NCBI GenBank assembly: GCA_035627515.1
Contig: DASPLQ010000012.1
Span: forward strand, 391,269-455,268
DNA length: 64,000 bases
DNA from: Vitreimonas sp.
GTDB lineage: Bacteria; Patescibacteriota; Microgenomatia; UBA1400; PJMF01
Direction of reading: 5' to 3'
The notes beneath the pieces were generated by a model that saw only the letters and a list, made by a program, of their open reading frames with translations, was not told the origin of the DNA and did not search any database. Made by a program: the position numbers and the translations under genes. This document shows, in pieces, positions 36,166 through 56,201 of the stretch (positions within the stretch are counted from its first letter, which is position 1; every line of letters begins with the position of its first letter).

Positions 36166-36279
36166 AAATTGTTTGTAAACCTTTTTCCAAGGTCGTAATT
36201 ATAACATAAGAGTAGAGTAAAATAAGTAACTGAAGTAATTGAATAATTAAAAAAGCGTGTCGGCTAATTACTCAATTAC

Positions 36280-39327: not shown

Positions 39328-39399
39328 ATAAAAACATCACAAGATAAACCAGGTGGCTACACACTGGTCTAGGCAAATACAAGCTCTTCGGCAGGAAAG

Positions 39400-39432
39400 A
39401 ACACTTAGTTATACACAGAATTTTCCACAGAA
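39400..39432. promoter_or_regulatory. two DnaA-box-like sites upstream of dnaA
   Basis: TTATACACA (39409) and TTTTCCACA (39421) lie in the 147-bp spacer between the virB4 stop and the dnaA start. Confidence 0.4.
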
Positions 39433-39474
39433 GACAAGGGGAAGAAAAGCTGGATCAATAGAGATGCTCTTGGA

Positions 39475-41508
39475 CTAAGAACCCGGAGGTTGATAGCTGT
39501 CGATTGAGTAAGGATCAAGTGGTGAGCCAGTTGCGGCTGGAGCTTTAGTACTGATTGGGGCAGGTGAGGATGTTGCTGCAGTATTTGAGCCAAGCGAGGC
39601 GTTAGGTGTCGGAGCGGCACCACGCAAAGCCCCATTAACCGTGGCCGGAGCTGGACCGGCTGCAGCGGCCGTGCGTGCTAATTGTTGCGCCACGCCGGCT
39701 TGGCGTTTTTTGAGGAGCTCTTCAGGGTTGGTAGTGATGACTTGATGTTCTACGTCACTAGCCACCACGCGCAAAGCCACGTGATTTTGGCCAGCGAAGA
39801 AAATGCCTTCACCGACATCAGCTGACACCAGCAACTGTCGTTCACCTTCGGATAAGTAAAACGTTTCTGCGAGCATCGGAATCGCAGCTGTAGATTGTTT
39901 CATCAAAAATTGAATCGAGGCGTTAGTGACAATAGCTTTGCCGTAGTCGCTGTGCAAGAAGTCTTCCACGTCTTGGGTGATGGTGGTAATACCTAAATAG
40001 TATTTCCGCGCGCGCTTGGCCATGGAGTGGATGAAAGAAGCCGAATCAGGATGCTTCATGAAGTACCACGCCTCATCAATAATTAACAACCGCTTTTTAA
40101 GCGTTTTTTTGATGCGGGTCCAAATGAAGTCTAAAATGATAAACATCGCAATCGGCCGCAGTTCTTCTTCCATTTCTCGGACGGAGAAGACAGTGAACTG
40201 ATTTTTGATGTCGAAGTTTGAAGGTTGGTCAAAAATCCCTCGGAAAGAACCGGTGATGTATTTTTCTAACCGGACTGCAATGTCATTAGCTTCAGCATTT
40301 TCCATACCAATTAACGCTTTGTAGAGGTCTTCCATTAGCGGGGGTTGATTGGTTTGCGTAGCTGGATCAGGAGTAATCCCTTTGGCTTTATAAGCAGCCA
40401 CCAAGGCTCGGTCGAGCATAGCTTCTTGAGAAGACGTCATGTTGCCCAACATCACTTTTAATAATGAATGGAGGGAAATGATCTTTTGACCAAGTTCATT
40501 TTCACCTTCTTCATATAGATTGGATAAATCAAAGGGATTAATTTTTTTATCAGAGTTAAAGGTAAAGTTAATGTACTCACCACCAACTGATTTGGCTAAG
40601 TCTTCATACTCATGTTCGGGGTCGAGCGCAATCACATCGATGCCAAACATTAATTGACGGAGAATTTCTAGCTTCACGGTGTATGATTTTCCGGCACCAG
40701 ATTTGGCGAACACGACCATGTTGGCGTTTTCCATCTTGAAGCGGTCGAAGATGACCAACGAGTCGTTGTGTTCATTGATACCGTAGACAATGCCAGTTTC
40801 CATAGTTAACTCGGACGAAGTGAACGGAAAAGTAGTCGCCAACGAAGTGGTGTCCATGTTACGGGTGACGAGTAATTTATCAACGCCCATCGGCAAGGTG
40901 GTTTTGAAGCCTTCATCCATTTGTAGCGTGGCTTTTTTAGAGACGATTAATAGAGAACCTAAAGTGGATTGAAGATTTTTAGTAACACGATCGAGCTCAT
41001 TTTTATCTTGAGCTTGAATGGTGACGTACAAACCGAATTGATAAAAGCGCTCGGCGCCTTTAGCGAGTTGCTCACGAATTATGCGGGCGTCTTCTAACTT
41101 AACTTCAGTGTTAATATTACTGATTTTTCCGGCCCGGATGTCAGACTGGATTTCAGCTTCCATTTCAGTGATCTTGCGCTTTAAGTTATCCAACACCTCT
41201 TTAACGTCGACTGGAAAAATAAACATCGAGATGTTGAGTTGGTGAGGAAAGTTGATCAAGGGTGACAACCAGTTAGCGGGCACCGTCCGAGGATAACCAG
41301 CCACAAATAAGGTCCGGGTGTAGGTGGAGTTAATTTTCTGATAGGTGAAATCAACCTCAATTGCTTCTGGAGCAATAATATCCTGAATCGTGACTAGACC
41401 CCGCGAAAATTCTTTCAGCTTCTCAACTTCTTGAGCTTCGGCATCTTGTTGTGGATCAGGTTGAGTTTTCTTATTGAAAAACGGCAACGGCAAATTAAAA
41501 CTGGGCAT
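39475..41508 (-). CDS. virB4: VirB4/TrbE/CagE-family T4SS ATPase. The core lacks the extreme N-terminal VirB4 segment and has an Ala/Pro-rich C-terminal tail.
   Basis: Walker A FAKSGAGKS. VirB4-specific Walker B LLIIDEAWYFM (DEAW). The Gram-positive VirB4 N-domain pattern YQKINSTYTRTLFVAGYPRTVPANWLSPLINFP...ISMFIFPVD is present. Confidence 0.75.
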   Translation of the reverse strand: MPSFNLPLPFFNKKTQPDPQQDAEAQEVEKLKEFSRGLVTIQDIIAPEAIEVDFTYQKINSTYTRTLFVAGYPRTVPANWLSPLINFPHQLNISMFIFPVDVKEVLDNLKRKITEMEAEIQSDIRAGKISNINTEVKLEDARIIREQLAKGAERFYQFGLYVTIQAQDKNELDRVTKNLQSTLGSLLIVSKKATLQMDEGFKTTLPMGVDKLLVTRNMDTTSLATTFPFTSSELTMETGIVYGINEHNDSLVIFDRFKMENANMVVFAKSGAGKSYTVKLEILRQLMFGIDVIALDPEHEYEDLAKSVGGEYINFTFNSDKKINPFDLSNLYEEGENELGQKIISLHSLLKVMLGNMTSSQEAMLDRALVAAYKAKGITPDPATQTNQPPLMEDLYKALIGMENAEANDIAVRLEKYITGSFRGIFDQPSNFDIKNQFTVFSVREMEEELRPIAMFIILDFIWTRIKKTLKKRLLIIDEAWYFMKHPDSASFIHSMAKRARKYYLGITTITQDVEDFLHSDYGKAIVTNASIQFLMKQSTAAIPMLAETFYLSEGERQLLVSADVGEGIFFAGQNHVALRVVASDVEHQVITTNPEELLKKRQAGVAQQLARTAAAAGPAPATVNGALRGAAPTPNASLGSNTAATSSPAPISTKAPAATGSPLDPYSIDSYQPPGS

Positions 41509-41590
41509 TGCTCCTTATTGTACGGTACTTTAGGGAGGAAAAGAAAGGGGTGGTGGAGTAAGAAGGGTATATAATGCCGACAAATAAAAG
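41509..41590. promoter_or_regulatory. divergent promoter region between virB4 and the small ORF
   Basis: A -10-like GGTATATAAT at 41560-41570. The RBS AAAGGTGA sits 8 nt upstream of the ATG at 41591. Confidence 0.35.
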
Positions 41591-41824
41591 GTGAAATATA
41601 TGGCAGAAAATGAACGAGAATTAGGGAAAAATGATGAAGCAGAATCAAGGACAGTGGGGCTGTTAAATTGGGAAGAGTTAACTCATGAATCTATCCTCAA
41701 CTTTTTAAGGCTTCAAGGAGGGGTAGAACTGGAAAATCTGTTAGCTCGCCGAACTGTATCTGAAAGACTCCAGATTAATGAGCGGGTAGTGCGACAGGCA
41801 CTTGAAAATGGAAGAAAAAGGTAG
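41591..41824 (+). CDS. small putative DNA-binding protein (77 aa) with a sigma-70 region-4-like HTH
   Basis: ILNFLRLQGG...RTVSERLQINERVVRQALENGRK resembles region 4.2 (LRFGL...TRERVRQIE). It has a good RBS and a -10. Confidence 0.4.
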   Translation: MKYMAENERELGKNDEAESRTVGLLNWEELTHESILNFLRLQGGVELENLLARRTVSERLQINERVVRQALENGRKR

Positions 41825-41866
41825 GTTTAGCGGAAAGGTTTGTTGAAAACACAATTTTTTCTATGC

Positions 41867-41883
41867 TGTGCCAATATTAACAA
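41867..41883. repeat. motif M, copy 2 (first 17 nt conserved)
   Basis: CTGTGCCAATATTAACAA is identical to the start of 25581-25611. Confidence 0.55.
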
Positions 41884-41987
41884 TTTTGAAACAATAAAAC
41901 AGACAATAATTGACAGCTTAAGAAAACAAGGCTTAGAGTTTTCATTGTTTTAAAGATGGTCTTCTTGTTGAGCACAGTTTTTCAGGC

Positions 41988-42016
41988 TTGTATGAATATT
42001 GGCAAAAATCATACAA
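41988..42016. repeat. palindromic motif P, copy 2
   Basis: TTGTATGA-atattggcaaaaa-TCATACAA. The arms match copy 1 and the spacer is the reverse complement of the copy-1 spacer. Confidence 0.6.
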
Positions 42017-42068
42017 ACTACACAAAAACCACTTTTTGAAGAAGAAATGATGAATCACAAACAAAAAC

Positions 42069-43409
42069 CTACAACTCCGCAATCGGCGGTAAATTGCTGG
42101 TTGGCCCAGGTGGGGTGATATCAGTGATAGCTGTTTTGGGATCGGTAGGGTGAGCTGGTTCACCCGGTGGAGTAGAGGATGCTGGTGGTGTGGGAGGCGC
42201 CTCTGCAGCTGGTAATTCACTAATCGTACTGGGTCCGGCTGGAGTGGGAGTAGGAACCGCTGGATCTGGCGCCAATGGTTCAACACTGGCTACAGAAGCA
42301 GTGGGTTGAGGCATGGCAGGCAGAGTGGGGGAGACAGGAGCTTCAACCGACATAACAGTTGTAGGAGCTACCGGAGTGGATGTCATGGCGGGCTGAGTTG
42401 GCGCCGGGGCCTGAAACACAACTTGGTTTTGCACTGGGGTAGCTGGTGGAGCTAGAGGAGTAGGGGAGACCGCTGGAGCAGGGGCAATCACTTCTACCGG
42501 CTGAGCAACAGGAACTTCTGGAACTGGAGTTGGCGCTGTTTCGGTTACAGGCGTAGTGGGAGCTGGCTCAGGTTGAGGTGCCACTGGTTGAGCGACGGCT
42601 TGAGGTTGTTGATAAGCCATAGGATCAGTCGCCGCCGCTTCAGGAGCATACGCTGGTTGAGGCAGTGGTTCCGGGGCTGGCGTAGGAGCTGCGGCCGCTG
42701 TTTGTCCTGTCACCAAGTTTTGCAACTGCATCCGCGCTGAAACTACAGGGGTGGTGTAACTGCGCGTATCAGTGACTTGTTGACCATCTGAAGCTTCAGG
42801 ATTGTAACTTAAGTAGAACAGCTGAATGATATCTTGGGTAGTGAGTTGTTTGGCAAATAAGCCGATGCGACCAAGTTGCGCCATTAAGTGATCGCGCTTA
42901 GGCTCTAAAATGTTACGAGCCTTCTCGATAATCAAACTACGTTCCACGGTACTGACATCAGTTTTTTTGACACCTGGAATCACTGAAGAAGGTGGTAACA
43001 AACCCATTTCCAAAGCACTGGCGGGAATGACCACATAGAATTTTTTATCTAAGACATTACGTTCACGAATTAAATCCGAGACAAAAGCGCGATATTGAGC
43101 AATTTGTTGTTTGCGCAAAGGCGATCCTGCTTGATCCTCCTGGTCTTTGAGGAGTTGTAAATATGAGGTGATATCTTTAGTTTGGGACCGAACCACGATT
43201 TGAATGGGATAGTTCAAAGAGTTAATTAAACCGGCATAAGCGTAAATGACTGCATCTTGTTCTTCCTCAGCAAACAATCCAAAGTTGATGGCGCTGACGT
43301 TGAGAACGAGCGCCACTGCACCATCCTTCATGATCAATAAATCATTGGTTATATCGTAAATATCGAGAAATTGTTGGGTAGTGGAGTGAATTTGGGCAGG
43401 AGTAGGCAT
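42069..43409 (-). CDS. VirB4 N-terminal-domain-like protein fused to a ~220-aa Pro/Ala/Thr-rich disordered tail
   Basis: LIMKDGAVALVLNVSAINFGLFAEEEQDAVIYAYAGLINSLNYPIQIVVRSQTKDITSYL follows the pattern of the first ~90 residues of Gram-positive VirB4 ATPases (dG.y..ilev.pINF.L.s.eEQ...i..y..fln.l....QI...s...d). That pattern is missing from the 39475..41508 ORF. Confidence 0.5.
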   Translation of the reverse strand: MPTPAQIHSTTQQFLDIYDITNDLLIMKDGAVALVLNVSAINFGLFAEEEQDAVIYAYAGLINSLNYPIQIVVRSQTKDITSYLQLLKDQEDQAGSPLRKQQIAQYRAFVSDLIRERNVLDKKFYVVIPASALEMGLLPPSSVIPGVKKTDVSTVERSLIIEKARNILEPKRDHLMAQLGRIGLFAKQLTTQDIIQLFYLSYNPEASDGQQVTDTRSYTTPVVSARMQLQNLVTGQTAAAAPTPAPEPLPQPAYAPEAAATDPMAYQQPQAVAQPVAPQPEPAPTTPVTETAPTPVPEVPVAQPVEVIAPAPAVSPTPLAPPATPVQNQVVFQAPAPTQPAMTSTPVAPTTVMSVEAPVSPTLPAMPQPTASVASVEPLAPDPAVPTPTPAGPSTISELPAAEAPPTPPASSTPPGEPAHPTDPKTAITDITPPGPTSNLPPIAEL

Positions 43410-43440
43410 GGTTTAAGTAACTGTGTAATGATATCAAATC

Positions 43441-44583
43441 TTAATTTAAACTCCTAATCTCTAATGGCTCGACCACGTTCCCACTTAAGACCAACTGCAG
43501 CGGCGTAAACTGCCAGCCGTCTTTATCGATCACCAGCGAGTACGTCCCGTTAGCCAACGGTGTCGTGATGAAAAATTGACCTAAGGCATTGGTTTTGACA
43601 GCCCGTGCGACCATTCCTGAAGCATCTTGAATTTCCACGATGGCATCATTGATTAAGTCATTTTTTGTCGAGAGCACCATGCCCACCAATTTATTTGGTT
43701 CGGTGGGTTTGAGAGGGAAGGGTAAGTTGGCATTCATAGCCGCCGCTTGAGTTTGGTTTAAGTTAAGCGCTTGCGTGGGGGCAGTGACAGTACTATAGAC
43801 TGCCTGACCCACGGTATGCACATACCCTTCTTGTGTCGCTTCTTCTTCAGCGATGCCTTTTTTAACATCGACGGTTTGCAGTTCAGGCACCTCGATGTTA
43901 TGGGCCACTTGATCTGTTTCTAAGACTTGTTTATTGACTGCTTCAGAGACGTGATGAGTTGCAGCCACTTCCATCGTGAAAACCGGTGTATAGGTAGCAT
44001 CGGTAGTGACAGCATCGAGTTGAGCTTCAGGCTCTTTCAAGCTGTGGGGCCGGACGACTAAAGAAGGACGATGAGCTTGTTGGACTGAATCAACTTGGGT
44101 GACGATGACTTCGCCAAAGCTGGCTAAAATGGCGGCCATGCGTTGGCGCTCATACGCTTCGTCGGGATCGACATAGCCCACCGATAACGAACCCAAATAC
44201 TCTTTGATGCGTTGGCGACGAGCGGGAGTCAAGTCGATTTCAACAGTATTATTGGTTTCACCTTGAGGTTTATATAAAAAAGGATCAGGAATTTTAGGAT
44301 CTTTGCGCCAAAAAAACTTGGTTGGTTTATAAAGGACACTGAAAAAAGTCACGATCCAGTGATCGAGAGGACGCTCCTCAAATGGCACAAAGGCAGCCAT
44401 CGCTCCCACAGCCACCGCCAAACCAATGAAGGGCCACTTGATTACATTTGGCAAATTGGTGGTGTGAATCATGAAACCCACCACACAGCCCGCTCCAACT
44501 TCGAGGAACTGTTTGAGGGTCATGTTACCGATAATATGAAACCGGTAACCAACCACGTCTTGAGGAATGGCGTGTTCACGCAT
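43441..44583 (-). CDS. VirB3/PrgI-like two-TM membrane protein with a C-terminal beta-sandwich (carboxypeptidase-regulatory-like) domain
   Basis: The N-terminus IPQDVVGYRFHIIGNMTLKQFLEVGAGCVVGFMI...WPFIGLAVAVGAMAAFVPF has two TM helices. It resembles the PrgI family and sits immediately upstream of the VirB4-N ORF. The C-terminal part is MVLSTKNDLINDAIVEIQD...GQFFITTPLANGTYSLVI. Confidence 0.4.
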   Translation of the reverse strand: MREHAIPQDVVGYRFHIIGNMTLKQFLEVGAGCVVGFMIHTTNLPNVIKWPFIGLAVAVGAMAAFVPFEERPLDHWIVTFFSVLYKPTKFFWRKDPKIPDPFLYKPQGETNNTVEIDLTPARRQRIKEYLGSLSVGYVDPDEAYERQRMAAILASFGEVIVTQVDSVQQAHRPSLVVRPHSLKEPEAQLDAVTTDATYTPVFTMEVAATHHVSEAVNKQVLETDQVAHNIEVPELQTVDVKKGIAEEEATQEGYVHTVGQAVYSTVTAPTQALNLNQTQAAAMNANLPFPLKPTEPNKLVGMVLSTKNDLINDAIVEIQDASGMVARAVKTNALGQFFITTPLANGTYSLVIDKDGWQFTPLQLVLSGNVVEPLEIRSLN

Positions 44584-44620
44584 ACTACTATGGTAGCAAA
44601 TTTCAGGCAGGAAAAGAAGT

Positions 44621-45643
44621 TTACAATGGTAAACCGGTGCGGACAGCTGGGGTTAAGACCTCAATCGTGAAACTGTCTTGAGTGGTGTTTTTGGCAGTGC
44701 CGGTAAAATGATAAAACGGATACGCCAAGTTACTCTTACTATCAGTTCTGTACTCCAAACTCACACTGGTCATTTCGCCATCGGCAACATCACGGATATC
44801 GAGTGGCAAAGCGGTGTCATCATAGGCAGCGATGATGGAGCCTTGGTTGCGGTTGGTTAAGTTTTCCAGGGCTTCATTAACGGAAATTAACTCCACATTT
44901 TGATTGGCACGAGTCAGTGAGTAACTAGGTGTGAATGTGGCGCTTTGGACTTGTTGCCGAGCATTGACTATTATTACCACTGGCGGATTAGCTTGATAAT
45001 TAAAGAATACCGGAATGTCCTCAAATACATAACTAAACGGCACCCGGGCCATTTGGGCTTGAGAGGAATCAACTTCTTCACTTTCCACCGCCGCTGCGTA
45101 ATAGGTGATTTGGTTTTCCAGCGCTTTCAGCTCGAGAGCGCTCAAATATTCATCTACGAAGCCCTGGGAAATATCTAAAGCTTCGGTTTTGGTAATAATA
45201 CCGGCGCTGTCGGTGGCGACCACGTCTTGAGTGAGGCTTAACTCACCAGTGTTTACGTCTTTGCTTAAACTATAGCGGTCGCCAACCCACAAACCTTTTG
45301 AACTTGGGTGGGGTTGGAGTTGGAAATCATTCACGATCTCGCTTTCGATCTCTGCGGTGGCAAACGGCGTAGCTGACAATAAGGGCAAAGTTGCCGGCTG
45401 AGTAAATGGCTCACCCACGTACCGAAAACCGGCAAAGTTAGTAGTGCTGCCGTCGGCATTGGCGGTAGTAAACTCAGTCGTGGGAACTTCGGAAATCGGA
45501 GGAGTCAATAACCGTAAGGTCAACGCAATGACGATGCCGACAAGCGCAAACGCCAGCAAATACCATAGCCAACGGCTACTGAACGGGTTCGGTGTAACAG
45601 GTTCGGACGGGATCGTAAAGTTTGACATCTTTATCAGGCACAA
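44621..45643 (-). CDS. bitopic membrane protein (340 aa). It could be the VirB8/TcpC-like component by position and topology.
   Basis: A single N-terminal TM (WLWYLLAFALVGIVIALTL) with the rest extracytoplasmic. No motif-level support. Confidence 0.35.
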   Translation of the reverse strand: MCLIKMSNFTIPSEPVTPNPFSSRWLWYLLAFALVGIVIALTLRLLTPPISEVPTTEFTTANADGSTTNFAGFRYVGEPFTQPATLPLLSATPFATAEIESEIVNDFQLQPHPSSKGLWVGDRYSLSKDVNTGELSLTQDVVATDSAGIITKTEALDISQGFVDEYLSALELKALENQITYYAAAVESEEVDSSQAQMARVPFSYVFEDIPVFFNYQANPPVVIIVNARQQVQSATFTPSYSLTRANQNVELISVNEALENLTNRNQGSIIAAYDDTALPLDIRDVADGEMTSVSLEYRTDSKSNLAYPFYHFTGTAKNTTQDSFTIEVLTPAVRTGLPL

Positions 45644-48600
45644 AGTTGCGAATGCGACTGCTGGAAGTATTATAGAACTGTCCGCTAGTATTAGAAACCT
45701 CGTAATGAAGGTGTGGTCCCGTAATCACAACCTTCGCTGAGCCACCGGTAGAACCAACTTCACCAATGGGATGTCCAGCGGGAATCTCTTTATCATTTGA
45801 TAAGCGCGAATCGATTTTACTTAAATGAGCAAACACGAATCGTTCACTACCGGTATCAAGCACGACATACTTGCCAAAAGAACCAAAACCACCCCCCAAA
45901 CTGTTAATCTTAACAGTTCCAGCAAACGGTGTATAAACAGGTACACCACGGTTGGCACCAATGTCAAAGGAGTCAGATTTGCCATGCGAGTGAGAGCCAA
46001 ACGGTAATTGCGTAATCCGACCATCAACTGGCCAGCAGCCGTTTTGATTTTGTGGACACTCACCAATACAAATCACCTCTGCGCCACTGGCATTCAAGTT
46101 CTCACCAGATTTGTTTTCTTCTCCTCGTTCTAACAGTTCCGGAGTAGCCTGAGCTGAGAATAAAATTTCTACTTTATTAGAAACGTTACTGTCTCTAAAT
46201 GCCGAGTCAAAGGTTTGAGAATACGGATTGAGCGTGATTTCTTCACCACTATTAAGAATAATTTCACCATCGACCAGCCGCTCAGCCGGCACGAGCTCGG
46301 CGGTAGTCCGGGTGGGAAGGGTCGGTGTGGGGTCAGAGCCGCGGGTCTCAGTGTTAAGTTTGACCGTCATTACGTCCACGACGTTGCGAATTTTTAAGTC
46401 ATAACCTTTGTTGGCTTTGATGGTAATCGAGTAATCTGCCGTGGCAGGCAGCTCAGCATTTTCGAATTTAATTTTTGGTGAGACGCGTTTTTCGATGGTC
46501 ACATAAGGAGAGAGTTCACCACTCGAATCAGTGGTTGGCAGAGGTTGCAAGGTGGTGGAAACAGTGGCGGCAGCAGTCATGAACGTAGTCACCCCAATGA
46601 TGCCAGCGCCCGCTACCGAAGCTCCCACTACACCAAAGCCACCCCCCCCGGCTGCAGCTCCAGCACCGCCACTACCCAAGATGCCCCCACCGCCACCTCC
46701 TGAAGCAGCACCGCTGCCAAAAGGGTTAGTCAGGATATTACCAGCGCCACCACCTCCCGTAAGAGAAGAGAAGGCGCCACTAATTGAATTTAAGCCATTT
46801 TGAATGAAGGAACCAATGCCGTAGCCGACTCCAGCTCCACCGATGGCACCACCTAGCGCGCCAAACGGACCTCCTACTGAACCTAAAAACGCCCCTACGC
46901 CAGCTCCCACCCCGGTGGTCAGCGCAATGATGGGTGATTTGTTCATCAACATCAAGAAGGCAGTAGTCAAACCTGTAGCACCTGCCGCCAGCCCCATCAG
47001 GATTTTTTCACGATTATTAAGGACCTTTTGGGCGATGCGCTCTACAGCGGCTCCTCCTACAGGAGTCATGTATGCCGAGGCCAATGTCCCCAGGGCTTTG
47101 GCAGCGACAGCGTCAGTAGCAGCGCGCAAACGATCATTGGCTGCCATGCCTTCTGGTTTACCACCCATTACGTATTGGCGAAGTTTGTCCACAGCACTGA
47201 GGCCTTTGGTGGCTGGGCCGCCCTCTCCGGCACCGGCAGCTCCTGGGCTTGTTTGGGCGCCACCTCCTAGAGTCCGGATGGTGTTCATTACCGAGTGCGG
47301 CACGAAGCCGTTGCCAGGGTTGCCACCCACTTGTTCGACTTCGACAGTGTTCAGGTGGAGCTCAGTAAAAATTTCATACCGGATTTCATAGGAAATCAGC
47401 AAATGAGCCGGAACTTCTTGACCACTTTTTTGTGCAGGGAGCGTATACGCATTGACTAGATCTTCAGCTGTGATGTGAGTTTGAAGTAACTTAGCTGGAG
47501 CCTGAGTCCGAGCTGCAGCTTGGTGAAACCACTGGGTGTGTTGCTGGGAGTCTTGAGTTTCGGCCGGAAAAATATGTTGAAACTGGGCTAAGCCCTTTTC
47601 ACCTTTAGGATCAAATTCTGCAAATAACTGTTGATAATACGTCGTTAGTTCTGGTCGGAGTTGGTCGAGCTCAGCTGGTTTAATCTCAAAGCCAAACAGC
47701 GTCTGAAAGTCTTTTGGTGACAAAAATTGAATCCAGTCATCAGAATGACCTGTAATCGCCAAGGCTTCTAATCGTGCTTTGGTGCTCCGTAGTTTACCTA
47801 AATCATTGGGATTGCCTGAAGCATCAAGCGTAATCAGGCCAGCTTCAGCCAGCTTTTGTTTCAGGTAAGAGGCTGATTTAGGTTCTTGGCCAATATTGGC
47901 TCCTACAGCCGGTGTCACTTCTGTGAACTGTGTTTGTGGTTGTGTAGTCTGGGGGAGTTGATAGCGAATGGCTACGTCGCTGACATTAAAGTAGGTATGC
48001 AGGTGTTGAAGTTCCCGCACCAGGCCGCTCATGTTGTTTTTGGTGAGCAATTTTTCCAGATCCGCTGGGTTAGTTTCTTGGAGACGACTCAAGTGGATAT
48101 CTACGTAGCCCGAGACTAAGCTCTCGAGGTCAGCCATCGGCATGGTGTTAATATCGAAGCCTTCATTGACCAGCTGCGCCTTCATGCTGGCCAGCAAGCC
48201 ATATTGGAGGGTCGTTTTGACGCGGGCTAGTTGTTTAGCGGCTTCTTCGGGAGCCATGGTGCCGGCTGCAATCTCGGCTGCAATTTCCGCAGCTCCCAGA
48301 GGTTTAGCAAGCTGGTTTTTGGTAATTTCTTCAGGTTTTTGTTCAGTCTGAGGTTCCTGGGTGGTTTTCGTCTCAGGTTTTTGGTCGTCATCGAGATCGT
48401 CCTCGGTCACCAGTTTCTCGTCGGCATCTTTTTCTTTTTGTGGTTGAGCTAATTTTTGCTCAGCCTCTACAAAGGCAGGGAGATTAGTAGCTAAAACCTG
48501 CAGCGCACTCGACAAACGCCCCAGATTAACGGGCGTCAAAAACGCGGCTTCATTAAAGCGTTCTGCAGATTGAGGATCTTGGCCCAAGCTCAAGAGTTCT

Positions 48601-49004
48601 TTTTCTGAAATGGATCCGAGGATTTGACTAGCTAATTGTTGGAGTTGGTGTTGCTTGCCAAACTGGTAGTTATATAAGCGCGAAATAAGGTCCGTGCAGA
48701 AAGCTGCCACGTCAGAGTAATACAGCGTCGTCCGATCAAAATTTGGACTGCGGCGACTGCGATGCGGTCGTTGAGGGAAAACTGAGCGTAACGTGCTGTT
48801 GCTATGGGTGTTGGCAAAGGGAACATTATGAAATTCTTTGTCAACATCTAAGCCAATGTCTTGGCGAAAAGCTTGGTTGAGTTCGGTTAAAAACGGCAGA
48901 ACTTGAGCCAAAGGAATATCGGAAGGAATTCGTTTGAGTTCGTCAAAACGCGTCAAAGTTTGAGCGTCCACGACAATTGGGGCAGGCATGACGGCGTCGA
49001 CCAT
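45576..49004 (-). CDS. giant membrane protein (1142 aa) with a polyglycine-rich TM region and a C-terminal M23 (LytM) metallopeptidase domain. Candidate T4SS-associated cell-wall hydrolase.
   Basis: The C-terminus HSHGKSDSFDIGANRGVPVYTPFAGTV...FGKYVVLDTGSERFVFAHLS...GEVGSTGGSAKVVITGPHLHYEV carries the M23 zinc-ligand motifs HxxxD and HxH. The Gly-rich hydrophobic block is GGGAGNILTNPFGSGAASGGGGGGILGSGGAGAAAGGGGFGVVGASVAGAGIIGV. Confidence 0.7.
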   Translation of the reverse strand: MVDAVMPAPIVVDAQTLTRFDELKRIPSDIPLAQVLPFLTELNQAFRQDIGLDVDKEFHNVPFANTHSNSTLRSVFPQRPHRSRRSPNFDRTTLYYSDVAAFCTDLISRLYNYQFGKQHQLQQLASQILGSISEKELLSLGQDPQSAERFNEAAFLTPVNLGRLSSALQVLATNLPAFVEAEQKLAQPQKEKDADEKLVTEDDLDDDQKPETKTTQEPQTEQKPEEITKNQLAKPLGAAEIAAEIAAGTMAPEEAAKQLARVKTTLQYGLLASMKAQLVNEGFDINTMPMADLESLVSGYVDIHLSRLQETNPADLEKLLTKNNMSGLVRELQHLHTYFNVSDVAIRYQLPQTTQPQTQFTEVTPAVGANIGQEPKSASYLKQKLAEAGLITLDASGNPNDLGKLRSTKARLEALAITGHSDDWIQFLSPKDFQTLFGFEIKPAELDQLRPELTTYYQQLFAEFDPKGEKGLAQFQHIFPAETQDSQQHTQWFHQAAARTQAPAKLLQTHITAEDLVNAYTLPAQKSGQEVPAHLLISYEIRYEIFTELHLNTVEVEQVGGNPGNGFVPHSVMNTIRTLGGGAQTSPGAAGAGEGGPATKGLSAVDKLRQYVMGGKPEGMAANDRLRAATDAVAAKALGTLASAYMTPVGGAAVERIAQKVLNNREKILMGLAAGATGLTTAFLMLMNKSPIIALTTGVGAGVGAFLGSVGGPFGALGGAIGGAGVGYGIGSFIQNGLNSISGAFSSLTGGGGAGNILTNPFGSGAASGGGGGGILGSGGAGAAAGGGGFGVVGASVAGAGIIGVTTFMTAAATVSTTLQPLPTTDSSGELSPYVTIEKRVSPKIKFENAELPATADYSITIKANKGYDLKIRNVVDVMTVKLNTETRGSDPTPTLPTRTTAELVPAERLVDGEIILNSGEEITLNPYSQTFDSAFRDSNVSNKVEILFSAQATPELLERGEENKSGENLNASGAEVICIGECPQNQNGCWPVDGRITQLPFGSHSHGKSDSFDIGANRGVPVYTPFAGTVKINSLGGGFGSFGKYVVLDTGSERFVFAHLSKIDSRLSNDKEIPAGHPIGEVGSTGGSAKVVITGPHLHYEVSNTSGQFYNTSSSRIRNFVPDKDVKLYDPVRTCYTEPVQ

Positions 49005-49060: not shown

Positions 49061-50695
49061 TTATGCAGCGGCTGTATGGGCGTCGGAAGCTTGATAAAGA
49101 TCAACGATCGCATGGTCTTGACCGCTGAGCACTTGGCCTAAACCAACCGATAGTTTTGGTTGTGCGTTGTGTATGTTTTTTTTGTTTGATTGATCAACCT
49201 TTGTTTTAGACAAAGAACCCTTTTTGTCAGAGCTTGCTGAACTGTTCCATTGTTTATTAACCGATGTCCCAGGTACCCAACTACATACATGGCAAGAGGT
49301 ATCACTCAGACCGATCTTTGTGTTGCCACATTGTCGACAGCGTTTGACGGGACACAGCTCGCCGTTCGGCAAGCGTTCAAACAAGCCACTCGAGCCTTTG
49401 CCCATACCATGTTCTACAAAGCCACCAAAGTCAAAGTCGCCGCAGGGGATGACACCCATAATACGTTTGCCAATTGTGGGCAAAGCACCAGATAACGCGC
49501 GGTAGTAAGTATCAGCACTGCCGCCTTTCGTCAAAATATCGTATTTATCAGCTATTTCTTTACCAGGAACCGTCACTTGCCAACCGATGGCATTGCCGAT
49601 GGCGCCAAAGGCTTTTTGCAACCGTTCGGCTCTCCCAAAAGGGGTAGCCAGCAACTCTTTCACAAAAATAGCGAGGATGGCTTGGCGGGCAGTCAATAAA
49701 TCTTGGTTTTGTTTGGCTTGGCGATGGTCGGCTTTAGCGACGCGGGCAAATAACTCAGTATCACCAGCCAGCGCGCCCAACCCAAACAACACATCTCGAG
49801 GATCACTAGCTTTGAGATTATTTTTGCGATCTCGGCTCCAGTCTTCGCCTAAGGTCAGAATGCGCATCATAAACGCCATCTCATTCGTCGGAGAAAAATG
49901 ATCCGTTTGGTCTAAATTTAAAAATGTGTCTACCTGCGTTTGCCAATCTAAAGAATGTAGGTATCCCTTCGTTTCAATCACATAGCGCCAGCCGTCGTGC
50001 GAGTATTTATCTTTGACTGTTGATGGCACTGCAATTACCCGGTAAATATTTAAAAACGAGTCTTTGCCACCGTGAACCTGGTGGGGGGGCATTGCTAAGG
50101 CGTGCCAGTTACCCACCACCCCGGTGGTTTTCTGACCATCTGGCAAAGTCATATCGATGACGGGTAAGTTTTCAGCCAGGCTAGCCAATAGCGGCGGCGC
50201 TAACACTGGATCCGTGGGCAGCACTTCTGCAATGAGTTTTTTGATCTGCTCATACTCCAATCTATATCGCTCGATAGTTGAGTCAGGTGCGCCAATCTTG
50301 ATCGCATTTTCCCAACCGTATTTAGCACGACCAACTACATCTGGGCGCAGTGGATAATCAGGATCTTCCACGGTGAAGCTCCCGGCAGCATCCCAGATCA
50401 CATCATAGTAATCGGTGATCGTAAAAGGATGAACGATAAATTCTTGATGGAACGTCCGCAGTTGTTTTTCCAGTTGGGGACCCAGCGCCACTTTGGCAGC
50501 CTCAACTCCGTGTTTCTTCACCAATGTCTCGAACTCATCAAAGAGATGGGACATGTTGAAGGCTTGCTGAGAGGACTTTTCAGCTGATTTTTGGGATTTG
50601 CTCTCTTTGGAATTTGGAATTTTCCGCGACAAATCAGGCCGTTTCCACAACCACGGTTTAAACCAACGACTCGTTTCTTTGCGTAAAGCTCCCAT
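49061..50695 (-). CDS. hypothetical protein (544 aa; possibly 497 aa from MSHLFDE) with a C-terminal CxxC...CxxC zinc ribbon
   Basis: CPVKRCRQCGNTKIGLSDTSCHVCSW. No other family recognised. It contains a G7 tract at 50083-50089. Confidence 0.45.
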   Translation of the reverse strand: MGALRKETSRWFKPWLWKRPDLSRKIPNSKESKSQKSAEKSSQQAFNMSHLFDEFETLVKKHGVEAAKVALGPQLEKQLRTFHQEFIVHPFTITDYYDVIWDAAGSFTVEDPDYPLRPDVVGRAKYGWENAIKIGAPDSTIERYRLEYEQIKKLIAEVLPTDPVLAPPLLASLAENLPVIDMTLPDGQKTTGVVGNWHALAMPPHQVHGGKDSFLNIYRVIAVPSTVKDKYSHDGWRYVIETKGYLHSLDWQTQVDTFLNLDQTDHFSPTNEMAFMMRILTLGEDWSRDRKNNLKASDPRDVLFGLGALAGDTELFARVAKADHRQAKQNQDLLTARQAILAIFVKELLATPFGRAERLQKAFGAIGNAIGWQVTVPGKEIADKYDILTKGGSADTYYRALSGALPTIGKRIMGVIPCGDFDFGGFVEHGMGKGSSGLFERLPNGELCPVKRCRQCGNTKIGLSDTSCHVCSWVPGTSVNKQWNSSASSDKKGSLSKTKVDQSNKKNIHNAQPKLSVGLGQVLSGQDHAIVDLYQASDAHTAAA

Positions 50696-50925: not shown

Positions 50926-53900
50926 TTGTATCACTATAGTAGTAATAACACACCCTTGCGTAAAAGGCCAGTGGATCACTACAATGGATTTATTATGGCT
51001 GAAACTGCATTAATGATTACTGGTCAAGTTGTTGAAAATAAAGATAAAAAACGCTTTGAAATACCTAAATGGAGTGATCTTTTACAAAGAAAGGGAATTC
51101 TGGGTTCAGTAGCACGGTTAACAGAAAAAGTCAGAACTTTCTTTTCTCGAGAACGCAAAGACAAAGAACTGCCCAAAGCTACTCCCACAACTGAAGCTCG
51201 AGCAAAGTTAAATAATGCTGGCTACTGGGCAATTTTGGTAGAAGCACAAAAAGCTCGTAATGAAGACAAACCTGTCACTAAAGACCTTCCTATTTTAGAT
51301 GGTCAAAATCCAAATCCTGATTTAGTGGCCGCTCATATCATTCAACAAATTTGTGAGGCAGCTTATAAAGGTAATAATATAAATTTCGAAGACACCTTTG
51401 CGGCACAAACAATTAAAGAGTATTTAACAGCCAATAATAAAACAATCTACGAATATTTAGCTGAAAATGGTTATCCAATTACTAAGCTTGCGGATACTAT
51501 TGCGGCTTTGGCTAGCGAAGCAGCTGGAAATGAAGTTCCGGAAAACCAACAAGAAACTACAACCCCTGCTCCGGAGGTAATTGATGCTAATGTGGCTGCC
51601 GAGCGCGAAAAGTTTAAAGCTAAAATCTTTAATAACACACCTACACCAACTTCATATTGGAACTTGTTCAAGCGAGCCCACAACACACATCTCATAGGCA
51701 AAATTGACTGGGTTTATACCCCAGCTATTAACACAGACAACCCCGACATGGCTGATGTAGCAGCACGGTTAATTTTAGCTAAGTTAACAAACAATGATGC
51801 TCTGAAGAAGACTGCTTATGATGAATTAGCAAACTATTTGAAATTTACCGTTAACAAAGATAAAACAGTTCAAGAAAGAGCTCAAATCACCATTTCTGAT
51901 ACTGACATCGACGCCTTTATCGAACAAGGTGGTTATAAAGATGAGCTTATTAACCAAATCGTCGAGCAAGTTAAAAAAGAGGCTGAGGTTAAATCTGAAC
52001 AAATTCGCTTCAAGATTGAAAACTCTTCACATTGGCCAAAAATTCAAGCCAATATTGATACCAACAAACCACTCAATGAGGGTTTGGCTATGGATGCAGA
52101 TCCTACTGCGACGTCACTCGATGACGCAGTCGTGATGGCCATGAGTTACATCGAGGGTAGTAATCCCAGTTATGGCACGATCAAAGAGGGGTTGAAGTTG
52201 CATGACATGGATGATGAAGCGACATTGCGTCGTCTAGCAGCGGAGTGGAAGAAAGAGCGTCAAGAAAAATACATCAAAGCCAGATTAGAAGTTGCTCGCG
52301 CTCGGTTAAGTGACTTGGGTTACTGGAAATTAATTGATCAACGCAGAGCTTTTAAGACTCCAAGTGAGGAACAAAAGAATTCCGACGAATACAAAGCATA
52401 TGCCAAAGAACTTCAGGATTTGAAAACAGCGTTCGCAGAAAAGAAAGCCACTCCTGAGCAAGTCTTAATTTTAGTCTTGTTAGGCGAAGTCCCCTATCGC
52501 AAACGCGAAGTGAAACAAGCCTTGGATGCCGCTGATTATCCTGAGGATGTCATCATCTTGTTGGGTAAAGAAGCTGGAGTGACGATTGATCGCCAACCTC
52601 TGTGGAAAGCCGCCATTAATGGTACTTCAGTTGAAGACTTAGCTGATAAATATGGTATGGATCCTGAGGAAGTAAGAAGGCATTTACGGAGTAAGGTACC
52701 TGCTAACGGTTTGTTGATGTTTGGTGGCAGTTTGGCCTTCAGAGCTGGTTTGACTGGAGCGGCTGGTCTTAATCCTTTGGTGTCTGGAGCTGCCGCTGGA
52801 ATAGCAGTTGATGCTTATCGCGTTGCAGCTGGTGGAGCAGATGTTTTCTTCGATAATGCAGCTCAAAATACCAGTGCAGCTTTATTTGGTGGTAAGGATG
52901 AATCGTTAACTGAGCGCATTCGTAATGAGCGCCGATCGGGCATTGGTGGTGCAGCGATGTGGGCACTACGCAAGCTTGGTATTTTATTCAACGCCCCAGG
53001 TAGTGCTTTGACTCAGGTGGTAATTGGTGTAACACGCCACCGAGCTGAAGCTTCAAACTTAATAGATAAGATGGGCATTTCAGTTGATCAACAAACAAAA
53101 GATATTGACTCAATTCAATTAGAAACCATTGTTAAAGAAGCCATTAATAGCGGCAATTTCCGTCAGGTGCAAAAGCTGGCTAATGAACTTGCTACTTTGG
53201 CCCGCTATCAATATGGAGCATCAGACGTTTATGGTGAGACAGGCAGTCGGCCGAACAAAGAAGCTAATGGTCTTTTAGATCGGTTTAGACATTATGTGAA
53301 CCCTGAGCATGGTGCAGAGCAATTAGCCCAGCTTCATGAAAAATTAGTTGCCACAGTGGACAAACTTCTGGATGAAAGTCCCAAAATTCAGACGATGCGC
53401 GAACATCGAGCAGCCAACACACTGACTGCAGAAGATATGCCACGCTTGGCTTTAGAAAATGAGTGGAAACGCACTAAAGATCGTGCCAAGACTATAGGTG
53501 TGTTAGCCTTGGGAACCGCAGTTGTCTTCAGAACAGTCACCAACGTAGCTAGTGGAATGGCATTTGTAGAAGCTGGTAAAGTTGCAGTAGATTTAGGTCG
53601 TGATGTGGTTCGAGGTATTGGCTATGTGGCAGAGCGAGGCATTGATGCTTTGCGAGGTCGTAATGAAGCTGAAGCCTTCAATCCCGCTTTAGATGGTATG
53701 AGAGTCCAAACCGGTGTTCGCCAAGGCGTGGAAGCAGCTCGTAACCAACCACCAGCCCCTGGTAGTTGGGCCGCTGCGCGTGAAATTTTGAATAATGCTC
53801 GTCCAGGTCGCAGCATAATCGAGGACGCAAACATCAAACCTGATGGCGGCATGTTGTGGACACACTATCAAAATATGGGGCTTCCCGGCCGAGGTGTGAA

Positions 53901-54234
53901 TGTGGCCAATGATGTTACTCAAGCAGTTAACAAAGTTATTAACCCTGACTGGAGTGCAAATGCAATTGGCCCACGTCAAACCTTTGATTTCTTAAACCGT
54001 GTACCATCTTCACAAGAACTGCAAGGTATGTCTGGTCAATTCTTATTGAAGCCTGAACAAGCCCAACGCTTAAGTGAAGCTGTCCAAAACTATAATAACT
54101 ATAGTGGTGAAACCAGGACTTTATTGGAAGGTTTATATAAAGGGACCGTGGACACCGACAACTTAGTTAATAACCCAGATGACTTGCAAAAGTTATTAAG
54201 AATCGCAGTAGAAACCAATGGCGCTCAAGTTTAA
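50926..54234 (+). CDS. giant hypothetical protein (1102 aa; alternative start MAETAL at 50995)
   Basis: An uninterrupted 3.3-kb ORF. It has internal Gly/Ala-rich hydrophobic segments (LLMFGGSLAFRAGLTGAAGLNPLVSGAAAGIAV and IGVLALGTAVVF). No known domain recognised. Confidence 0.5.
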   Translation: MYHYSSNNTPLRKRPVDHYNGFIMAETALMITGQVVENKDKKRFEIPKWSDLLQRKGILGSVARLTEKVRTFFSRERKDKELPKATPTTEARAKLNNAGYWAILVEAQKARNEDKPVTKDLPILDGQNPNPDLVAAHIIQQICEAAYKGNNINFEDTFAAQTIKEYLTANNKTIYEYLAENGYPITKLADTIAALASEAAGNEVPENQQETTTPAPEVIDANVAAEREKFKAKIFNNTPTPTSYWNLFKRAHNTHLIGKIDWVYTPAINTDNPDMADVAARLILAKLTNNDALKKTAYDELANYLKFTVNKDKTVQERAQITISDTDIDAFIEQGGYKDELINQIVEQVKKEAEVKSEQIRFKIENSSHWPKIQANIDTNKPLNEGLAMDADPTATSLDDAVVMAMSYIEGSNPSYGTIKEGLKLHDMDDEATLRRLAAEWKKERQEKYIKARLEVARARLSDLGYWKLIDQRRAFKTPSEEQKNSDEYKAYAKELQDLKTAFAEKKATPEQVLILVLLGEVPYRKREVKQALDAADYPEDVIILLGKEAGVTIDRQPLWKAAINGTSVEDLADKYGMDPEEVRRHLRSKVPANGLLMFGGSLAFRAGLTGAAGLNPLVSGAAAGIAVDAYRVAAGGADVFFDNAAQNTSAALFGGKDESLTERIRNERRSGIGGAAMWALRKLGILFNAPGSALTQVVIGVTRHRAEASNLIDKMGISVDQQTKDIDSIQLETIVKEAINSGNFRQVQKLANELATLARYQYGASDVYGETGSRPNKEANGLLDRFRHYVNPEHGAEQLAQLHEKLVATVDKLLDESPKIQTMREHRAANTLTAEDMPRLALENEWKRTKDRAKTIGVLALGTAVVFRTVTNVASGMAFVEAGKVAVDLGRDVVRGIGYVAERGIDALRGRNEAEAFNPALDGMRVQTGVRQGVEAARNQPPAPGSWAAAREILNNARPGRSIIEDANIKPDGGMLWTHYQNMGLPGRGVNVANDVTQAVNKVINPDWSANAIGPRQTFDFLNRVPSSQELQGMSGQFLLKPEQAQRLSEAVQNYNNYSGETRTLLEGLYKGTVDTDNLVNNPDDLQKLLRIAVETNGAQV

Positions 54235-54746: not shown

Positions 54747-56201
54747 CTAAGCTGCAGCTGGTTGAGGCTGAAGGGGTTGTTGCTGCTGCTGAGCCAACTC
54801 TGCTTGTTGTGCAGCTACATCACGTTGCTGACGAGTTAACTCTTGTTGCTGATGGCGACGTTTTTCTTCTTCATCCATGTAGCGGTCATACCCTAAGAAC
54901 CATTCGCGATTACGGGGTCCATATCCACCATGCATACCATTCATATATGACATGCCTCGAGGATCGCCTTTGAAAGCTAGGTACTGGTAGTAAACTTGTT
55001 CGCCAGTATGAGAAATTTCTACTAGGCTACTTAACAAAGATTGTTGACCCGACATCTTAGCAATCATCGAATCACTCATTAAAAAGAGGAGAGCCATACA
55101 ACCAAATAAGGTGGCTTTACCTTTGAGAATATTACCATCTTGGTCACGAAGACCTAAGAAGTTTAAAACATCAAAGCCAGTTTCTTGATCAGTTTCCACT
55201 TTTAAATCAGGCTGCTTGTTTAACTCCACCGCCATTTGTTCACCTTTTTTAGTCGGATCAAAATCTTCGATGCCTAGGGCCTTTGCTTGCTCCATCAGGC
55301 GAGCTACTGCTTGAGAGTCTTCAGGATTAGTTTTTTCTGCTAATTCCTGTAACCACAGCTTGCCTTGCATCTGAGCTTCTTGTTTGGTTTTGTCTGAAAT
55401 AGCAGGGTCACTAAATGTCTCGACTGCAAATGAGACACCTTTTCTGCGTGAATCCATGAAAGCCTCGAGCTTAATGGTTTCAAGTTCTTGTTGGTAGGCA
55501 GCAAAGGCTTCTGGGTTTTGGGTTTTAAGTTGAGCCACTTGTTCAGGAGGTAATAAATTGGGAGCATCGTGATATTGAGCATGATATTCACGAACCGCTT
55601 TTTGAATATTTTCCGTACCCATGTTAGCAACGTTAGTTTGGAACGCTTCGATAGCGCCTTTTTGTTTGACACGATCTTGATAGATTTCATCAACTACAGC
55701 TTTCACAACGTCATTATTGGGGAATTTTTCAGCAATGGCACCCAAATTTCCGTCCTGATCGGCATAGGCAATGATGGTTTTGCGGAGATCATCAGGACCA
55801 GCATTTGCGACTACTTTTTCTCCTAACCGAGTCATTAAATTTTGTTGTTTATCTTGTTTGTCGAGGAACTCAGCATATTGATCAGCTCGCTCTTTGCCAG
55901 ACTTAGGATCAACGATTTGCCCCTGTGTTTCTTGCAAAGGAGCTGGTGTTTGAAGGGCGGCATCAATAGCTTTGTCGATATTGGGATTGGCACTGGGTTC
56001 GGTGGCACGATCCGCACTGGGCTGAGGAGGGCGCAGCAGAGAACGATGGTCAGCCAGGGGAATTGCTCCTACTGTTTTCAAAATGGGGACTTCTGCAGCT
56101 TTATTTTCTTGAGGTTTAAGAGGTAGAGTGCCGATAGGACTTAAGCCATCGGGCTGGCTATTAGGGTTCATTGTAGATATTTGGGGATTTTCAGTAATCA
56201 T
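54747..56201 (-). CDS. hypothetical protein (484 aa) with a Gln-rich C-terminal tail
   Basis: Long ORF with a possible TM (LFGCMALLFLMSDSMIA). The tail is RRHQQQELTRQQRDVAAQQAELAQQQQQPLQPQPAAA. Confidence 0.45.
   Translation of the reverse strand: MITENPQISTMNPNSQPDGLSPIGTLPLKPQENKAAEVPILKTVGAIPLADHRSLLRPPQPSADRATEPSANPNIDKAIDAALQTPAPLQETQGQIVDPKSGKERADQYAEFLDKQDKQQNLMTRLGEKVVANAGPDDLRKTIIAYADQDGNLGAIAEKFPNNDVVKAVVDEIYQDRVKQKGAIEAFQTNVANMGTENIQKAVREYHAQYHDAPNLLPPEQVAQLKTQNPEAFAAYQQELETIKLEAFMDSRRKGVSFAVETFSDPAISDKTKQEAQMQGKLWLQELAEKTNPEDSQAVARLMEQAKALGIEDFDPTKKGEQMAVELNKQPDLKVETDQETGFDVLNFLGLRDQDGNILKGKATLFGCMALLFLMSDSMIAKMSGQQSLLSSLVEISHTGEQVYYQYLAFKGDPRGMSYMNGMHGGYGPRNREWFLGYDRYMDEEEKRRHQQQELTRQQRDVAAQQAELAQQQQQPLQPQPAAA

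Follow-up and report, generated by a model that had tools for sequence, protein, structure and literature searches.

The 64,000-nucleotide stretch of DNA analysed here (the window, part of contig DASPLQ010000012.1) carries at positions 45576-49004, on the minus strand, a gene for an unusually large membrane protein with a peptidase-like C-terminus, and the question it raises is what such a protein does beside the genes of a type IV secretion system (T4SS). The initial annotation, made from the letters of the sequence, had proposed an open reading frame (ORF) of 1142 amino acids (aa) at these positions. The ORF listing confirms it, and the protein is identical to GenBank HYD34878.1, which is encoded on a 1.41-Mb contig. 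Our preferred answer, which we consider reasonably probable, is that this giant T4SS-associated protein (hereafter the giant protein) is a membrane-tethered wall peptidase belonging to the chromosomal, origin-proximal T4SS of a Patescibacterium, an ultra-small bacterium of the candidate phyla radiation (CPR), and that this T4SS is of the Gram-positive MPF-FATA (mating pair formation FATA) type. This answer builds on domain content, operon membership, family conservation and topology statistics, from which we infer catalysis, the identity of the target wall and the contacts between proteins.

The ORF is real and not a chance one, because an exhaustive HMMER search recovered 170 cluster representatives of the family at E ≤ 1e-10. 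The family surfaced only in this search. Word-index queries with the full-length protein and with its N-terminal part returned solely the giant protein itself, the full-length query having probably been swamped by a Gly-rich block in the middle of the protein, and a query for homologues of the C-terminus gave generic M23 matches only, annotated as MepM or NlpD. The M23 head at the C-terminus is the best conserved part, with a mean identity to the relatives of 38%, followed by the spacer domain that precedes it (30.5%) and by the N-terminal region (15.6%). Targeted literature searches did not find a description of the family. Membrane-anchored hydrolases linked to T4SSs, and the Patescibacteria T4SS itself, were already known; new are the family, its fixed place in the core operon, a metal motif of variable spacing, a conserved glycine zipper and exchangeable heads.

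The giant gene heads a run of genes on the same strand of the window, in which it is followed by g340, a PrgI-family gene, a TraC/TrsD-like gene, a VirB4-like gene, dnaA (37663-39327) and dnaN (36280-37386), and then by rpmH-rnpA-yidC-jag. The start of g340 (44621-45628; 335 aa, with an N-terminal transmembrane (TM) anchor at aa 21-51) overlaps the 3′ end of the giant gene by about 53 nt. The PrgI-family (VirB3-like) gene at 43441-44583 matches Pfam PF12666 with 27.7 bits and encodes a C-terminal CarboxypepD_reg-like domain, while the TrsD/TraC-like protein (42069-43409; 446 aa; Pfam PF26593, TraC-like) resembles the N-terminal part of VirB4. The VirB4-like ATPase, the signature protein of T4SSs (39475-41508; Pfam TraG P-loop, AAA_10 and CagE_TrbE_VirB), lies directly upstream of dnaA. 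We compared this arrangement with 80 loci from Patescibacteria metagenome-assembled genomes (MAGs; Pacebacteria, Woesebacteria, Microgenomates and others) whose VirB4 is 72-85% identical to that of the window. The order is conserved, and on the strand of VirB4 (80 loci) we found the giant gene in at least 43 loci, g340 in 47, PrgI in 71, the TrsD-like gene in 75, dnaA in 76 and dnaN in 69. A protein of 1100-1680 aa and of like architecture fills the giant slot in every locus with enough upstream sequence. The link to Gram-positive T4SSs that had been drawn in the initial annotation is thereby upheld, a membrane-anchored M23 protein being part of a conserved PrgI/TrsD/VirB4 operon in the window and in the 80 loci. 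In the databases, HYD34878.1 and many of the related loci (L002-L081) are labelled 'Vitreimonas sp.', 'uncultured Pseudomonadales' or 'candidate division TM6'; since the VirB4 identities given above and the full operon are shared with Patescibacteria MAGs, all these labels look like taxonomy assignment errors, evidently so for Vitreimonas and Pseudomonadales.

The T4SS in question is the origin-proximal, relaxase-less, MPF-FATA-like system described for Patescibacteria (PMC12102498), where TrsD is reported to be the most abundant T4SS partner. The system lacks a relaxase (PMC10633639; PMC12102498), and epibiotic growth of S. epibionticum depends on it (PMC10633639; PMC12857230). No earlier T4SS had been shown to be indispensable to the bacterium that carries it (PMC10633639; PMC12857230). 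A survey from 2025 reported that VirB1-type hydrolases are mostly unlinked to virB4, that some Patescibacteria VirB1 homologues bear an added Peptidase_M23 domain, and that pilus biogenesis may not need VirB1, with other enzymes possibly in its role (PMC12102498). The giant protein was not described there, and it is a strong candidate for the wall-opening role that the survey left open.

The C-terminal head (aa 986-1138; 45591-46049, on the minus strand like all parts of the gene) belongs to the M23/LytM fold. The Peptidase_M23 hidden Markov model (HMM), proposed beforehand as a check, matched aa 1011-1106 with 54 bits against a cutoff of 28.7 (E = 2e-14). It is the sole Pfam domain of the protein, and 28 of the 29 full-length relatives have it as well. 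Structural prediction, the other check proposed, agreed: in the AlphaFold2 (AF2) model the ectodomain reached a predicted local distance difference test score (pLDDT) of 80-95 and consisted of a beta-sandwich spacer (aa 835-985) and an M23 fold (aa 990-1138). Foldseek matched the head with probability 1.0 to LytM, lysostaphin, EnpA, StM23, Csd3 and LasA, and equally to EnvC, DipM and SpoIIQ. Phage ejection and internal proteins with M23 domains were also among its PDB matches, and a BFVD search gave matches confined to this head. The spacer (aa 831-985; 46050-46514), modelled wholly as beta-strand, carries the motif SxYVxIEK...YxIxIxPK...D and gave phmmer matches in 31 related loci; no Pfam family was found for it, and its PDB matches were only weak (Ig-like or arrestin-like).

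The head had been credited initially with the full set of M23 zinc ligands, which is correct in part. Four kinds of alignment agree on the register: HMMER comparisons with solved M23 structures, made pair by pair, a joint MAFFT alignment that included 13 generic M23 proteins, alignments of orthologues, and the family profile against the PDB. The canonical Asp is D1014, in 'SFDIG', and in every alignment the canonical motif-1 His position, four residues earlier, is occupied by Ser1010. The 'HxxxD' read before, H1007...D1011, is shifted by three residues against the canonical motif. Motif 2 (H1098-L-H1100) and the catalytic His (H1060, within 'FAHLS') are canonical. The head therefore agrees with the M23 family in fold, HMM match, HxH and central His, and departs from it in the HxxxD motif. 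As for the worry that the ligands would prove not to be conserved on alignment, it came true for one of the three zinc ligands, at Ser1010, whereas the other catalytic residues and H1007 are conserved. In 40 M23-bearing orthologues, H1007, D1014, H1060 and H1098 were present in all 40 and D1011 in 38, and the position of H1100 was His in 38 and Asp in two; in the 29 full-length sequences H1007, D1014, H1060, H1098 and H1100 were likewise invariant.

The first motif of the family, as it appears in the orthologue alignment, is (S/T)H, a variable loop and D-A-F/Y-D-I. Where the motif was recognisable (150 sequences), the nearest His upstream of the Asp was 6 residues away in 78 and 8-16 residues away in 56. 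Profile alignment to NMB0315 showed that the family lacks the 7-residue segment bearing the canonical ligand His, a loss that brings the upstream 'RxHP' His beside the Asp strand. We hypothesize from these alignments that H1007, an invariant His placed 6-16 residues upstream of the Asp across the family, would replace the motif-1 His as zinc ligand. A long spacing between His and Asp, of about 12 residues, is also seen in M23A enzymes such as LasA. The M23A peptidases (LasA/staphylolysin and beta-lytic protease) thus share with the giant family both the M23 fold and a long, non-HxxxD spacing, and their structures 3it5 and 8af1 were among the Foldseek matches. Unlike the giant protein they are secreted soluble enzymes, and the sequence of the giant head is closer to M23B proteins (StM23, NMB0315, Csd3) than to M23A. 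If the head is active, the variable His-Asp spacing would extend the sequence rules for active M23 sites.

Upstream of the spacer lies what had been described as a polyglycine block. A Gly/Ala/Ser-rich hydrophobic block is present (aa ~667-825; charge-free, with glycine at 34-46% within aa 701-800, by composition and hydropathy), but it is not uniform and falls into four parts. These are a first TM helix (aa 667-688; 46941-47006) preceded by a K/R-rich flank (NNREK), a conserved glycine-zipper helix (aa ~691-738; 46791-46934) with the family motif GxxxG...GGPxGxxxGAxxG, an uncharged and poorly conserved Gly/Ala/Ser linker (aa 739-791; 46632-46790), and a last TM helix (aa 792-816; 46557-46631; AF2 helix 793-816) followed by a conserved 'AFLxxxP' exit motif. 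The hydrophobic segments of the protein span aa 667-688, 689-712 and 784-819. In the zipper, the core of the block, the glycine columns (about aa 695-735) stay in register over the 29 full-length sequences, and the 11 GxxxG pairs compare with 5.2 ± 1.6 in shuffled sequences, of which 2 in 5000 attained such a count. Two relatives gave weak Pfam matches to Gly-zipper families, and AF2 modelled aa 691-738 as a helix with low confidence.

The linker, which is the most Gly-rich stretch of the block, carries the C8 homopolymer previously noted within the Gly codons. It lies at 46642-46649 (C8 when read on the plus strand, G8 in the coding sense), near aa 786, and is built from the codons GCC GGG GGG GGT; no other G/C run in the window reaches 8 bases. 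Slippage by one base here, in either direction, would bring translation to a stop at aa 792 or 826 and so cost the protein its ectodomain. Two independent assemblies carry the in-frame version. Judging from the sequence, phase variation at this tract is possible.

The initial annotation had also allowed that careful topology prediction might leave the protein without any TM segment, a concern that the conserved TM segments described above set aside. Lys and Arg together number 3.4 on average in the 20 residues ahead of the first TM segment versus 1.1 after the last (n = 105 full-length members, Wilcoxon p = 3e-13). Cysteine is enriched 19-fold toward the C-terminus, from 0.10 per 100 aa in the N-terminal 600 aa to 1.91 in the C-terminal 310 aa; C990 (in 'GCWP') and C1136 form an invariant pair, and C979 and C983 are also conserved. 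Because of this positive-inside bias and the distribution of Cys, the data fit an N-in/C-out topology, with the N-terminus in the cytoplasm and the C-terminus, probably disulfide-bonded, beyond the membrane. For this, the chain must cross the membrane an odd number of times.

The M23 head is not the only one found in this position. Among the 60 loci with the upstream gene, the head was of M23 type in 45, carried an HExGH motif in 11 and was of a Cys/His type in 4. Five of the 45 M23 heads (L006, L007, L013, L017 and L034) were combined with a NAGPA (phosphodiester-glycosidase) domain, Pfam-confirmed in L007. The HExGH heads are intact, with the motif 'HELGHxID...GEAFAE' (L003, L009, L014, L019, L020-L023, L040, L051 and L057), and the Cys/His heads carry 'GCGATSC...GHYYVITC' (L062, L067, L068 and L071). 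Both are motif-level calls, as no Pfam family was found above threshold and the only matches were weak ones to ATLF and M57 at E ~0.04; they may be undescribed hydrolase domains. All these variants sit on same-sized scaffolds in the same operon slot, which is the conserved-scaffold, variable-head arrangement of polymorphic-toxin-like effectors, and no trafficking domain was found by Pfam in the giant protein and 28 relatives. HExGH loci occur in at least five places among the M23 loci in a crude clustering of VirB4 (UPGMA, the unweighted pair group method with arithmetic mean, on identities, which is not a phylogeny), and this pattern suggests recurrent head exchange. Next to the 3′ end of the giant gene there is always a gene for a protein with an N-terminal TM anchor, which measures about 335 aa with M23 heads, about 190-220 aa with HExGH heads and about 135 aa with Cys-type heads (the latter two seen at L003, L009, L014, L019, L023, L040, L051, L057, L067, L068 and L071). 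Of the eight HExGH-linked versions examined, five gave weak matches to the g340 profile. Since positional orthologues carry other hydrolase-type heads (M23+NAGPA, HExGH, Cys/His), it is apparently catalysis that selection maintains in this slot.

We propose the following mechanism. The fast-evolving, helical N-terminal domain of about 660 aa would stay in the cytoplasm, and a three-pass block, composed of a TM helix, the glycine-zipper helix, a floppy Gly/Ala/Ser loop and the last TM helix, would place the disulfide-bonded ectodomain, with its beta-sandwich spacer and M23 endopeptidase, outside the membrane. There the tethered head would cut peptide stems or cross-bridges of peptidoglycan locally, and the cut would let the T4SS channel or pilus cross the wall. 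The cytoplasmic domain and the zipper, which may drive oligomerisation, would link the enzyme with the membrane complex of VirB4, TrsD and PrgI, and g340 might act as an extracellular docking partner.

The wall-opening job proposed here is that of PrgK, TraG and CwlT in Gram-positive conjugation. Like the giant protein, PrgK (Enterococcus pCF10) and TraG (pIP501) are encoded in MPF-FATA-type T4SS operons, and they have the layout predicted for it, with an intracellular N-domain without a signal peptide, a TM anchor and one or more extracellular wall-hydrolase domains. PrgK, with its intracellular N-domain, TM helix and extracellular LytM, MUR and CHAP domains, also shares a LytM/M23-fold domain with the giant protein, and it binds PrgL, a VirB8-like protein from the adjacent gene (PMC11323569), an adjacency resembled here by that of g340, which by this analogy is a candidate for a PrgL-like docking partner. 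The differences are as marked. The giant protein has neither an SLT/muramidase nor a CHAP domain, M23 being its sole head; its cytoplasmic domain is about 660 aa long versus about 250 in PrgK; its anchor is a three-segment glycine-zipper block instead of a single helix; and outside the M23 fold no sequence homology was detected between the two. VirB1 of Agrobacterium and the MPF-FATA VirB1 profiles TrsG/CD419 have the same presumed role, the local opening of peptidoglycan for T4SS assembly. Because the lytic transglycosylase or lysozyme-like fold that defines VirB1 is absent from the giant protein, the latter would be an analogue of VirB1 and not a homologue.

A counterpart in Saccharibacteria brings the proposal within experimental reach. 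SEML1_0007 of Ca. Southlakia epibionticum ML1, a protein of 1113 aa annotated as hypothetical, is encoded beside virB4 in an origin-proximal T4SS cluster and was found by transposon sequencing (Tn-seq) to be essential for epibiotic growth (PMC10633639 supplementary tables). Its C-terminal head is a LAS-type zinc peptidase of the Hedgehog/DD-peptidase (M15-like) kind, where the giant protein has M23, and its best whole-structure matches are CPR proteins annotated as Peptidase M15B and Peptidase M23. The gene order also differs, SEML1_0007 lying downstream of virB4 and being followed by a lysozyme/CHAP protein, whereas the giant gene of the window lies upstream of PrgI. The two scaffolds are probably homologous. 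As the Saccharibacteria strain is genetically tractable, the idea of wall cleavage can be tested there directly.

Several points weigh against a tethered wall peptidase. The number of TM segments is uncertain, as AF2 confidence in the TM block is low; and if the zipper, with its central GGP, folded as a hairpin, the number of passes would be even, in conflict with an outside C-terminus. Contacts between the giant protein and T4SS proteins are postulated ones, and the g340 profile gave no meaningful match against PDB and Pfam, with no similarity to VirB8 or PrgL detected. The canonical motif-1 His and its spacing were found in only 3 of the 150 sequences, the position being otherwise A, V, S, L, E or T, and in the profile alignment H1007 aligns to the 'RxHP' His of canonical M23B enzymes, which is not a ligand. 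No SLT, muramidase or lysozyme domain was found by Pfam in the giant protein and 28 relatives, nor among the PDB fold matches. To our knowledge, all characterised T4SS wall hydrolases carry a glycosidase domain. Compared with these, the giant protein has the T4SS operon and, by statistical inference, the N-in anchor with an extracellular hydrolase, and it lacks a glycan-cleaving domain. Ser at the motif-1 His position makes SpoIIQ of Bacillus subtilis inactive, and the H120S substitution abolishes Zn binding in SpoIIQ of Clostridioides difficile (PMC4982068). The LytM domain of PrgK, the closest functional analogue, is degenerate and inactive, with a regulatory role only (PMC11323569).

These observations lead to the alternative that deserves the most attention, unlikely as we consider it, namely that the M23 head has lost catalysis and acts as a module for binding peptidoglycan or docking proteins, the giant protein being a structural or scaffolding subunit of the trans-envelope T4SS. 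The position of Ser1010 is unconstrained family-wide, and Foldseek rates EnvC, DipM and SpoIIQ level with active enzymes. SpoIIQ is a strong precedent, being like the giant protein membrane-anchored, with a LytM/M23 domain that has Ser at the motif-1 His and that is matched by both Foldseek and HMM, and although inactive it is a component of the SpoIIIAH-SpoIIQ secretion-like trans-envelope channel (PMC4982068). However, SpoIIQ is small, has a single TM helix, works in a sporulation machine and has no compensating upstream His described, whereas the giant family keeps the remaining catalytic residues invariant over phylum-scale divergence. Known degenerate LytM domains (EnvC, DipM, PrgK) are without most or all of the catalytic residues, that of PrgK having lost both HxxxD and HxH; here one of the five canonical residues is lost, at Ser1010 as in SpoIIQ of B. 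subtilis, and the other four and the extra His, H1007, are invariant. Moreover, the sole substitutions of H1100 are to Asp, which is also a metal ligand, the alternative heads in the slot keep catalytic-type motifs (HExGH, M23+NAGPA), and the giant protein has no partner hydrolase domain that a dead head could regulate. Because four canonical residues and the extra His are invariant at 30-38% identity, in the best conserved part of the protein, while truly degenerate LytM domains lose most of theirs, the alignments argue that the head is probably active.

A second alternative directs the head outward, as a weapon or translocated component that attacks the host wall at contact, with heads fitted to the walls of different hosts and the zipper possibly forming a conduit in place of the scarce VirB6. 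The variable heads on a conserved scaffold, the interspersion of HExGH among M23 loci and the variation of the downstream gene with head type would all fit this. Glycine zippers are typical of oligomeric pore formers, and the zipper is conserved here. VirB6 homologues are reported to be scarce in Microgenomatia (PMC12102498), epibiotic growth depends on a T4SS that lacks a relaxase, as said above, and phage ejection and internal proteins with M23 domains were among the PDB matches. We nevertheless regard it as improbable. With a TM tether, a short linker and one spacer, the reach of the head is probably limited to the cell's own wall, and PrgK reaches only mid-wall (PMC11323569). Neither a secretion-signal domain nor a release site was recognised in the giant protein. 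Its gene lies among structural genes with overlapping frames, the TM-anchored product of the downstream gene looks like a machine part and not like an immunity protein, and the window encodes a separate VirB6 candidate with at least six TM segments at 60725-62503. A bolder form, to which we give slightly less credence still, makes the giant protein the core oligomeric conduit of the T4SS, in which the zipper would replace VirB6, the N-terminal domain would dock VirB4 and TrsD, and the head would open the host wall at contact; if it were true, the head type would set which hosts an epibiont can feed on.

That the protein is a housekeeping hydrolase for wall remodelling or division, of the MepM, ShyA or EnvC-FtsEX kind, and only incidentally adjacent to the T4SS, is very improbable and was rejected as the main explanation on fixed synteny: M23 proteins are common autolysins and furnished the generic MepM/NlpD matches, the origin region is rich in housekeeping genes, and a separate Patescibacteria operon fuses M23 or papain-like heads to a common membrane scaffold (bioRxiv 10.1101/2025.01.14.632903), but wherever a locus extends far enough, the giant gene occupies one fixed place and strand with respect to PrgI, TrsD and VirB4, its frame runs into that of the following operon gene, the giant protein showed neither FtsEX nor coiled-coil nor LysM features, and the S. 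epibionticum counterpart lies inside a T4SS cluster defined as an essential unit.

The N-terminal region (aa 1-660; 47025-49004), predicted to be cytoplasmic, all-alpha and partly disordered, is nearly free of Cys and evolves fast. Its first 600 aa had been called domain-less at the outset, and this is borne out: no Pfam match was found in the giant protein and 28 relatives, a word search of 5.8 billion proteins found no homologue, and jackhmmer with the N-terminal 660 aa gave zero matches among 142 family N-termini. AF2 modelled helices only, at a low mean pLDDT of 50-58 (49.9 for a model of the N-terminal region alone), and a Foldseek search of that model against the PDB gave no significant match, the best E-value being 0.2. 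Hydropathy revealed no N-terminal signal peptide. The sole recognisable conservation, seen by eye in about 140 sequences, is a motif at the extreme N-terminus, 'M[AVTS][DE]' followed by 'LK[RK]L...FLxxL', and judged by this motif the region is homologous across the family at its extreme N-terminus. The length of the region is kept at 650-1100 aa across the relatives.

Beyond the operon, the VirB6 candidate at 60725-62503 (minus strand) is a protein of 592 aa with a signal-like N-terminus and at least six hydrophobic segments, for which no Pfam match was found; it has a counterpart in three loci, about 10 kb upstream of virB4, and is a candidate for a divergent VirB6-like channel subunit. VirB6 and extended VirB6 proteins contain at least five hydrophobic helices, to which large hydrophilic domains may be added (PMC12857230), and an extended VirB6 identity was rejected for the giant protein, as it and its relatives have three, at most four, hydrophobic segments.

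Directly upstream of the giant gene, 49061-50695 (minus strand) encodes a protein of 544 aa with a C-terminal Cys cluster (CPVKRCRQC...CHVC) of zinc-ribbon-like look; it gave no Pfam match and has a counterpart in one of the 80 loci. Just past the operon are three ORFs of 1102, 484 and 1446 aa (50926-54234, plus strand; 54747-56201, minus; 56231-60571, plus). Each has a single hydrophobic segment near its C-terminus and neither a signal peptide nor a Pfam domain, and counterparts are nearly absent from the 80 related loci; the three could be cargo or surface proteins specific to the lineage.

In the rest of the window, 11478-14972 (minus strand) holds the 23S rRNA, the 5S rRNA and one tRNA, with the next ORFs starting from 15204. 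A 16S rRNA gene was not detected anywhere in the window, and the rRNA genes may be unlinked. The cumulative GC skew has its minimum at about 29-30 kb (range about 28000-31000). The block at 33783-49004, which comprises dnaA, dnaN, rpmH-rnpA-yidC-jag and the T4SS operon, is entirely on the minus strand and points toward this minimum, an unusual orientation relative to the presumed origin. Envelope-related genes nearby encode a LysM protein (957-1778, minus strand), a VanW and PG_binding_4 protein (22965-24782, plus strand) and a DUF4012 protein of 1005 aa (30649-33666, minus strand), an indication that peptidoglycan-related functions are encoded by the organism itself.

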